Assembly (NCBI GenBank): GCA_951406725.2
Contig: OX597826.1
Span: 3,782,001 to 3,846,000, forward strand
DNA length: 64,000 bases
Direction of reading: 5' to 3'
DNA from: Octopus vulgaris
Taxonomy: Eukaryota
Below, piece after piece: positions 6,217 to 56,296 of this stretch. The stretch's first letter is position 1. Each line of letters begins with the position of its first letter. The notes under the pieces are model-generated. The model was not told the origin of the DNA and ran no database searches. It saw nothing but the letters and a program-made list of their open reading frames with translations. Position numbers and translations under genes: made by a program.

Positions 6217-6300
6217 ACCGTAAAAATTAATACAGAGAGTTGCTTATTTGTAAACAACAACAACATCGAAAAACACCTACGGAATGAGAAATTTCCCCAA

Positions 6301-6345
6301 GACACCTGATGAAGGCTGGAGGGTATACAGCCGAAACGTTGTGTT
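6301..6345 (+). ncRNA. Minimal type I hammerhead ribozyme motif
   Basis: GACAC | CTGATGA | A | GGCTG-loop-CAGCC | GAAA | CG | T T | GTGTT. Both core boxes intact, 5-bp helix II, 5-bp helix I, palindromic ACGT helix III. Confidence 0.7.
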
Positions 6346-7569
6346 AACAACGAACAAGATGAGGACAAATATTCGTCAAATGTAAATAATGTAAATAATG
6401 TATAGCCACAGTCTATCAAGAGTAACGAGCAAACGTGAAAGAGAGTATAACAACAAAAGCGTTTCTGGAAATGCGGAGATTCATTGAATAAATTTTGACT
6501 TAGTGAAGGAAAATCGAAATTGGTTTCTGGATTTAATGGGGAATATGGATCGGATAGATTTGTCTTGTTATTTACAACTAAATATAGAAATATACCATCT
6601 AAGATATTTTTTATGAGGAGGGATATATTTAGGCGAGGGAACAACCCTGCCAGAGCCTACTTTCAACGTTATTGGAAATATCTACGATAGTGGAGGTGAT
6701 GGTGTTGATGGTGTTTTGTATTTTGTTGCTATTCGTGGAGAAATTTCGTTTTATTCTTGCTTTGTCAACATATTTGCCAATGTACACGTATCTATATATC
6801 GCCATTTATACATCAATGAATGTGTATTTGTGAGCTTATATCTTTGGGCATGCGTGTTTGTGTGTCCTTGTGTGTGCGAGTATTTCTGAGATAGATTTAT
6901 CTAGAGGTGTGGCGAAATCTATAGAAGCAGAATGCAGATCACACATGAGAGGAGAAATTCGCGCCTTCCCTCAACGAAAATAAACATAACCTATGTTCTT
7001 AAAAACCTTCCTCTTGAAGTCGAAGTGCTTCGTTCCTGATATTGTTGTAACCTGAAAAAGCCATTATGGCAAATGAAGAACGAAAGACAAGAAGCACAGA
7101 ATAACGAAATAAGGGAAGTAAGAATAACAACAACGTGGAAGAAGGGAAAAAAACAGAGACCTCCTCACAAAAAAAAAGATAAATGGGAGAGAGAGAGACG
7201 CTGAATATATATCCAGAATAAATAAATAGGTATATAAATAAATTATATCGCTCAGGAAGCTGAACGAGAGGAAAAAAATAAAAGGACAATGAAATATAGC
7301 TAGTTAGAAACGGAGAAGAACAAAAAGGAAGATGTACAGACGAAGAAGAGAGAAAAAAACGGTAAAAAGGAGTGAGGCGTAAAAGGCTGGGGAAGTATAA
7401 TACGAAAATAAAACGGGAGAAGGAGAGGAAGGCCAAAGAATAGCGCCAGGAAGAAAAAATGGTCTAGATTAATGAATGAAAATTTGGTGTAATAATAAAT
7501 GAGTTATATATTAGATATAAATATATGTGTGTGCTCCTGTGTTTGTGTGTTCGCGTGCGTTTGTTAGTT

Positions 7570-50226: not shown

Positions 50227-52894
<2,668 letters not shown>

Positions 52895-54677: not shown

Positions 54678-55162
54678 GGGCGTAGGAGTGACTGCGTGGT
54701 AAGTACCTTGTATAAGAACCACGTGGTTCCGGGTTCAATCCCACTGCGTGGCACATTGGGCAAGTGTCTTCTACTCTTTTATTTGTTTCAGTCACTTGAC
54801 TGTGGCCATGCTGGAGCACCGCCTAAGTCGAGCAAATCGACCCCAGGACTTATTCTTTGTAAGCCTAGTACGTATTCTATCGTTAAGTTACGGGGACGTA
54901 AACACACCAGCATCAGTTGTCAAGCGATGTTGGGGGAACAAACAGAGACACACAAACATACCCACACACACACACACACATAAATACATATATATACATA
55001 TATACGACGGGCATCTATCAGTTTCCGTCTACCAGATTCAATGACGAGGCTTTGACCGGCTTCAGGCTATGGTAGAAGACACTTGTCCACGGGACCAAGC
55101 AGTGGGATTGAACCCAGAACCATGTGGTTAGTAAGCAAGCTACTTACCACTCAGCCACTCAT
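54678..55162. mobile_element. Inverted pair of family C SINEs (plus-strand head 54678-54775 fused to minus-strand copy 54772-55162)
   Basis: Head sequence is present in both orientations at the two ends. Confidence 0.85.
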
Positions 55163-55241
55163 ATATATATATTATATTAAATTAGAGATAAAACCACTAC
55201 TAGGCAAAATGTATGTATGTATGTATGTATGTATGTATATA

Positions 55242-55331
<90 letters not shown>

Positions 55332-55386
55332 TTTCGAACAGATTTTCGAAATCAGCAAATGTATTTTGCTTGAAAATCTATATAAG

Positions 55387-55517
55387 AAATCCTGCATAGT
55401 GAGAATTCGTCGAGGAAGCGGGGGCCTACCACACGCCGATGATAGGCAATACACCTTGAAACCATGGTCCGTGTGTGGTTTCCGCTTCATCGGGGAATTA
55501 CCTCCCTTTGCAGGTTT
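55387..55517 (+). ncRNA. Type I hammerhead ribozyme variant (U4C) closed by a long extended helix I
   Basis: CACACG | CCGATGA | T-AGG-loop-CCT-T | GAAA | CCATGG | TC | CGTGTG. Outer pairings GAAGCGG/CCGCTTC, AATTC/GAATT and CCTGCA/TGCAGG. Confidence 0.7.
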
Positions 55518-55816
55518 AGGGCACCGTGACGGTGTCGAGCCTTTCTGGTGACGTCGATGTTCGCCTGGGGCTAAATGCAACAGTAACACCCCCACCACCC
55601 TGCCCTGTCCCTAGCCATATTCAGATGGCTTTAGTCCCTTATGTTATATATATAGTTATATATACATACACACATACATATGAGTAAATACATGCATATC
55701 AAAACAGTTGCAGTGGCATTGCACTTCTGACCAATCAGTGGACAGTCCCTTGGCGATATCTCTCCTACGATTCGTGCCTGCAATACCCCTACAGATAAAC
55801 TTAATAGAATGGACAC

Positions 55817-55857
55817 TTAGGTTAATTAGGTTAATTAGGTTAATTAGGTTAATTAGG
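55817..55857. repeat. (TTAGGTTAA)n 9-mer tandem repeat, ~4.5 copies
   Basis: Direct inspection. Confidence 0.9.
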
Positions 55858-56296
55858 AAGCTGCTATCAATGTTCTTATCGTCACACGAAGCTGATGTTG
55901 GCTGATGATAGGACAAGCTACACTTTCTGACAGGAAGGAAGGGAATTTTAAACTAACAGTGAACTGTAATAAAACAACTATTATGAAAGCAGAAACAAAA
56001 ATATATGTATGTAAAAGAGCATAAGGGTAGATTGATTGGTCTAATAAATACACAATGAGAAAAGGAAGAGGAGAAGGAAAAGAAAATAAGCCACATTTCT
56101 CCTTAATGAAATGCAATATTTAGTTAGAAAATATATGTGTTTCACTGAAATGAATATAAAGAAAATGAAACAAAATAAATAAAAGATGACATGCATGTAT
56201 GTATGTATGTATGTATGTATGTATGTATGTATGTATGTATCTCTTTATTTGTATGTATGTGTATATATATATATACATATCTATCTATACATATGC

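Follow-up and report, generated by a model that had tools for sequence, protein, structure and literature searches.

In this study, we analysed a stretch of 64,000 nt from the genome of Octopus vulgaris (hereafter the window) that contains a hammerhead-bearing insertion. The insertion is very probably a truncated daughter of a young, non-coding 359-bp hammerhead repeat that belongs to the animal non-LTR retrozymes. A Penelope-like element (PLE) likely supplies the reverse transcriptase-endonuclease that copies this repeat into TA microsatellites. Alignment to the array unit of locus L020 places the copy at 55328..55646 on the plus strand, where it comprises unit positions 218–359 followed by 1–177, with unit numbering starting at the base after the GUC cut. 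With a length of 319 nt and a single arm, it lacks 40 nt of the unit and carries one substitution relative to the L020 unit (55423 A>G, converting an A–U pair into G·U), which is also found in other copies. A preliminary description of this DNA had regarded the island as a retrozyme-sized monomer of about 310 bp. This view has to be revised, since the real unit measures 359 bp and the window copy is a shortened daughter with a single hammerhead, which presumably could not release unit-length RNA on its own and is likely inert.

The copy is embedded in a microsatellite target, with (TATG)n and then (TA)n at 55212..55327 on its left side and a TA-rich tract at 55647..55666 on its right side. No target-site duplication is readable within the microsatellite at this copy, and no coding frame of at least 130 codons runs over it. 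Its 3' end (55640..55646, plus strand) lies at site A (unit 177), one of two positions at which copies of this family end consistently, and would represent the start of reverse transcription. Its 5' end (55328..55332, plus strand; unit ~218) falls inside the tail region where arms preferentially stop, and this junction is unique in the genome. The right flank (55700–56000) is single-copy and outside the element; it harbours 4.6 telomere-like copies of TTAGGTTAA at 55817–55857 as well as CTGATGATAGG at about 55902, which is not followed by GAAAC. Directly left of the TA tract, two repeats with tRNA-type B-box motifs occupy 54680–55160, which we take to be SINE-like. Further upstream, paired weak matches together with paired (TAA)n(ATG)n tracts at 51100–52750 suggest a local duplication of ~1 kb.

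The type I hammerhead motif spans 55430..55475 of the plus strand. Helix I is formed by CACACG (55430–55435) and CGTGTG (55470–55475), the catalytic core CCGATGA at 55436–55442 corresponds to C3 C4 G5 A6 U7 G8 A9, and helix II pairs AGG (55444–55446) with CCT (55454–55456, CCU in RNA). GAAA is located at 55458–55461, the predicted cut follows C17 of GUC at 55469, and helix III is the 8-nt palindrome ACCATGGT (55461..55468, plus strand), which is predicted to pair with a second copy in a dimeric hammerhead. Every motif coordinate of the preliminary description could be recovered at its position. We additionally observed U·U instead of G–C at positions 10.1/11.1 (55443/55457), a second core-adjacent deviation absent from that description. 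The main family departs from the canonical core (C3 U4 G5 A6 N7 G8 A9; G12 A13 A14), and the canonical G10.1–C11.1 pair is likewise missing, these positions being unpaired in 8 of 13 distinct motifs. A strict descriptor, consisting of a 5-bp helix I and a palindrome of at least 8 nt, matched this site alone in the 64 kb and found no match in 30 locally shuffled windows; together with the genome-wide copies, this rules out a chance motif. An Rfam scan returned no hammerhead family here at E up to 10, and only microsatellite-driven miRNA matches. Two further minimal hammerhead motifs of PLE type lie elsewhere in the window, one at 6300–6350 (plus strand) with a canonical CUGAUGA core and one from 63080 downwards (minus strand) with a CCGACGA core, in which C4 recurs in an unrelated repeat; other copies of this latter repeat, in L085 and L131, have CUGA.

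Folding confirmed the ~130-nt hairpin that had been proposed to extend helix I. The segment 55385–55520 reaches −58.1 kcal/mol (z −4.65, with 0/200 shuffles as good), the long imperfect hairpin itself covering 55391..55517 on the plus strand, and a similar rod is predicted in related families; for 55327–55640, the z value was −4.16. The hammerhead within this hairpin cannot be called fully folded, as had been claimed, since both the minimum-energy and the centroid structures are devoid of the hammerhead junction. Forcing this junction costs 7.4 kcal/mol (−50.7 vs −58.1), and helix III amounts to only 2 bp in the monomer. When folded as a circle, the RNA of the unit has 67% of its bases paired. 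Given the C4 core, the U·U at 10.1/11.1 and the palindromic helix III, we predict a slow ribozyme that requires two copies. The same core change is found in a natural viroid variant, for which Perreault 2011 (PMC3088659) describes lowered hammerhead activity of U4C in vitro, and an activity sufficient in vivo.

A search of the 2.8-Gb genome (227 contigs) with 55380–55530 as query gave 1,282 first-look candidates, of which the best 40 were scored; the full-length matches among them are 99–100% identical and lie at 359-bp spacing. Copies are dispersed over more than 700 genomic sites on many contigs, hammerhead motif copies number more than 1,200, and only 39 differences occur in 22,856 aligned bases between copies. 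The sequence is therefore not single-copy but abundant in near-identical form, and the tandem arrays to which the preliminary description had pointed are present, with a period of 359 bp and arms of up to 10 units. The unit has a G+C content of 46.8%, contains neither a coding frame nor an LTR, and its ends abut (TA)n directly. For the U4C change, both a family-wide core variant and a decay mutation of this copy had been considered. We found the exact C3C4 core in 1,215 copies and a U3(U/C)4 core in 154, with U3U4 in all of the 100 matches listed, while the canonical core occurs in the main-family context only once, among 61 matches of a looser CUGA pattern. On account of these counts, C4 is the consensus of the main subfamily; they bear out the family-wide variant and rule out decay of the window copy. 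Public contigs under other organism labels (four runs) contain the unit with a 359-to-1 join and the same subfamily variants, a join that arises from tandem DNA as well as from circles.

At least four further related retrozyme families of ~340–360 bp display the same back-to-back two-site insertions. Family B (615 matches; loci L114 and L123) has a UUGACGA core and G·U at 10.1/11.1, family C (L096:4850-5250) a C3C4 core, and family D (L185) helix II GAG/CUC and the canonical CUGA core in 59/61 matches of the looser pattern; older relatives are found at L171:660-890 and L173:2740-3050. In L119 and L120, family-B insertions are duplicated together with their flanks at periods of ~1,380 and 1,630 bp, which indicates later tandem duplication of genomic DNA. 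The compensatory changes among copies, to which the preliminary description had looked for its hammerhead, are present in the set of 13 distinct motifs. Here, 94.5% of cells are paired and 10/14 pairs show both-sided change; 0/500 shuffles scored as high and slid structures reached at most 51.9%. All three helices are thus kept across the related families by compensatory changes, of which few are independent, because the motifs come from a few related families. G5, A6, G8, A9, GAAAC and GU are invariant over the 13 motifs, and helix III is a perfect 8-nt palindrome in 13/13, in five spellings, which fits a putative cleavage as a dimer.

The anatomy of the insertions points to the copying machinery. 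Among 13 insertions picked by hammerhead similarity only, ten are two-armed with the arms back to back and three, including the window copy, are one-armed. All ten two-armed insertions have one end at unit 170–178 (site A) and the other at unit 218–222 (site B), with the 3' ends of the arms facing outward, mostly in (TA)n, and the inner ends scattered. Sites A and B are 44 nt apart in the unit and sit on opposite arms. Exact junctions with TA were counted 533 times at site A and 754 times at site B, while reversed controls gave 0. We further inspected 60 site-A-anchored insertions, the first listed of the 533 on contigs C1 and C2 with three already-examined insertions left out; 50 possess an opposite arm and 10 are one-armed. 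By exact-word mapping, 49/50 opposite arms end at unit 199–222 (38 at 222), and the remaining one runs off the fetched DNA. The predicted cut site is crossed by 62/108 arms, up to ten times, so that the template was not a cut linear monomer, and this candidate was discarded. Within the crossing arms, 20/62 stop at unit 175–228, to which 15.6% of the bases at risk belong (p 0.0008); this range was set once the data had been inspected, and with all 108 arms included p is 0.028. The 5' end of the window copy at unit 218 lies within this range.

The same genome contains a young PLE whose 781-codon frame, encoding RT and GIY-YIG, is intact; it was obtained from a search with 20,139 first-look candidates, of which the best 150 were scored. 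Copies of this PLE terminate in (TA)n at one of two positions 40 nt apart, +72 or +112 relative to their own hammerhead, and in L154, L178 and L180 an inverted PLE arm uses the other of the two ends. AT-rich or microsatellite targets are common to the retrozyme and the autonomous PLE. Since the insertion ends of the retrozyme resemble those of PLEs in the same genome, a Penelope enzyme likely copies it, and the shared end geometry suggests that the retrozyme works like a PLE substrate. PLE insertions are described with an inverted 5'-truncated arm and a 30–40-bp tail at one end (Craig 2021, PMC8557442). According to Frangieh 2024 (PMC11167929), a PLE enzyme cuts both strands of AT-rich DNA and extends them, using two internal RNA sites on either side of the tail as starting points; the protein is predicted to be a dimer, and ribozyme cleavage is not needed. 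Together, the tandem arrays, the more than 1,200 motif copies, the covariation and the Penelope-type ends uphold the proposal of the preliminary description that the sequence belongs to a retrozyme or PLE-dependent element.

The hammerhead of this abundant intact PLE (U3·A8 core) and its end sequence are unrelated to the retrozyme unit. Terminal homology to the unit was found neither in 30 GIY-YIG loci nor in the other PLE loci examined, all of them best-scoring candidates, no PLE frame was found in 30 family-D loci, and no RT or GIY-YIG frame lies within or adjoins the unit in the loci examined. Two candidates for a partner were rejected, namely a PLE piece in L120, which is an insertion separate from the neighbouring retrozyme, and the intact PLE found via L120, which has its own hammerhead and a different end. 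In the young PLE (L170:2807-6470, at G000:C6:133.34 Mb, and L175), a TTTTTTA run marks the overlap of a 466-codon upstream frame with the RT-endonuclease frame (−1 frame), where ribosomal frameshifting may occur; L172 and L180 carry a disrupted version of the upstream frame. Immediately before site B, families B, C and D resemble one another and the PLE tail in a small CTC/GAG hairpin, by visual impression only.

These end structures also bear on the proposal that the unit is a detached terminal repeat of an unfound autonomous Penelope, or a satellite grown by unequal crossing-over, with the hammerhead as a dead passenger, which we consider improbable. While the core deviates at two places without any Rfam match, and frog retrozymes are described as derived from PLE terminal repeats with local tandem growth proposed (Li 2026), ready-made arrays lie on both arms with fixed outer and scattered inner ends, and the loci examined show no PLE frame next to the unit. 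A dead passenger would moreover be at odds with the invariance of G5, A6, G8, A9, GAAAC and GU in 13 motifs and with helix letters that change in pairs.

We therefore favour a model in which a retrozyme RNA serves as substrate of a Penelope protein. The tandem arrays would be transcribed, and the protein would bind the RNA near unit positions 178–221. Both (TA)n strands would be nicked and cDNA started at 177 and 221, one site per strand, after which each enzyme would copy backwards through circular or uncut multimeric RNA, across the ribozyme site. Joining of the two cDNAs by their far ends would yield the back-to-back arms. For the copy in the window, a single arm, that of site A, would have been made, with synthesis completing one turn and then stopping at the tail region. 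Several points weigh against this model: the loci examined yielded no autonomous element whose terminal repeat is homologous to the unit, cleavage was reported for 1/9 predicted frog retrozyme dimers (Li 2026), and C4 lowers activity in vitro (Perreault 2011, PMC3088659). Moreover, the cells of the covariation set are not independent events, coming from few related families, and the sample of 60 insertions is site-A-anchored and drawn from C1 and C2 only.

With element and enzyme unchanged, two forms of the template must be weighed. In the published retrozyme model, the template is a monomeric RNA circle arising from hammerhead cleavage and ligation, and arrays form by rolling; we give this form about an even chance. 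It would account for arms of up to 10 units and for most long arrays being uniform from unit to unit (L049, L050, L077, L079), although a uniform source array would yield uniform arrays as well. Stops in the tail region following one full round would be expected if synthesis comes back to the bound protein, palindrome and helices are both conserved, and retrozymes of coral, mussel and axolotl are reported to yield circles (PMC7229834). However, haplotypes are mixed between units in some arrays (C9, C2:164, L057, L097), and at C2:164 the same five changes occur at the same unit index in both arms, which a monomer circle cannot give. Such a mirrored haplotype switch would be expected from the other form, a long linear RNA left mostly uncut by a weakened ribozyme, in which cleavage is rare, protein-assisted or regulatory only. 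We regard this form as a serious candidate whose probability falls somewhat short of one half. It agrees with the absence of a 5'-end pile-up at the cut site (3/108 at unit 1–5, p 0.20), with the prevalence of C3C4 (1,215) or U3(U/C)4 (154) cores in the abundant young subfamilies compared to a single canonical core in context, and with unprocessed RNA being the main PLE substrate in vitro (Frangieh 2024, PMC11167929). Yet arm-to-arm conversion could also explain C2:164, and in the 60-insertion sample, from which L049, L051 and L077 were excluded here, 0/55 unit-specific variant rows were exactly mirrored: 45 occurred in a single arm, and the other 10, though present in both, sat at differing units. 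Family D, in addition, has spread with the canonical CUGA core (59/61 matches).

The retrozyme class itself is already known. As in the animal non-LTR retrozymes described by Cervera and de la Pena 2020 (PMC7229834), among them mussel repeats of 350–390 bp, the octopus family combines a tandem unit within 150–450 bp, dispersed as dimers to multimers, with a G+C content below 50%, a single type I hammerhead in each unit, the lack of LTRs and coding frames, a highly self-paired RNA and co-existence with PLEs. In contrast to these, it has C3C4 or U3U4 cores and non-Watson-Crick 10.1/11.1 positions, and the arrangement of its arms, back to back in (TA)n with both outer ends fixed, is undescribed in the available text of that paper, where the word 'inverted' does not occur. 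Furthermore, our family is known here from DNA sequence, with cleavage and circles as predictions. PLE dependence of retrozymes has been proposed before (PMC7229834; Li 2026). Li, Clavereau and Pollet 2026 (bioRxiv 10.64898/2026.07.22.740005) likewise conclude that PLEs are the mobilising class, from co-occurrence and terminal-repeat homology in vertebrates in a text that, as available, does not use the word 'tail', whereas for the 359-bp family the evidence is insertion geometry and a homologous terminal repeat was not found among the loci examined. With PLEs, the family shares the inverted 5'-truncated arm, the tail at one end and the microsatellite targets (PMC11167929, PMC8557442), and MRC1 of Chlamydomonas is a comparable multicopy head-to-tail non-autonomous PLE derivative (Craig 2021, PMC8557442); unlike PLEs, the retrozyme has no coding frame, its tail measures 44 nt (30–40 bp in PLEs) and its unit is a closed permutable repeat. 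The minimal dimeric hammerheads of PLEs (Cervera and de la Pena 2014, PMC4209133), also the subject of Lunse et al. 2017 (via the review PMC6765202), have a short palindromic helix III and low predicted monomer activity too, while in the 359-bp family the 6-bp helix I extends into a 130-nt rod and G10.1–C11.1 is not kept. In the U3U4 subfamilies, the partner of U3 is G8 instead of A8. A literature search, with subscription journals, Repbase, Dfam and the supplements of Li 2026 outside its scope, found nothing on an octopus retrozyme, on this 359-bp family or on tail-type ends in retrozymes.

Until now, a Penelope-like RT has been proposed as the copier of retrozymes from co-occurrence and homology. 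In the 359-bp family, hundreds of very young insertions bear this footprint of Penelope directly, beside an intact PLE with the same footprint. With a 359-nt RNA whose start sites are predicted at 177 and 221, the family lends itself to direct testing in vitro and to the question of whether the template is a circle or an uncut multimer. It also contributes natural hammerhead cores, C4 and U3·G8, that standard models miss. As a more speculative and on balance doubtful extension, the most successful young retrozymes may spread by means of tuned-down hammerheads, which would leave uncut multimers available to a dimeric Penelope protein; this protein would prime the two target strands from two fixed sites of one RNA and be stopped at the next bound tail. 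The features conceivably tuning the ribozyme down, an assignment we make with equal hesitation, would be the C3C4 or U3U4 cores, the open 10.1/11.1 pair and the dimer-only helix III. If this reading were true, monomer circles would not be an obligate intermediate of animal retrozymes, and the thousands of near-identical insertions would document the entire Penelope integration pathway as it runs in vivo.
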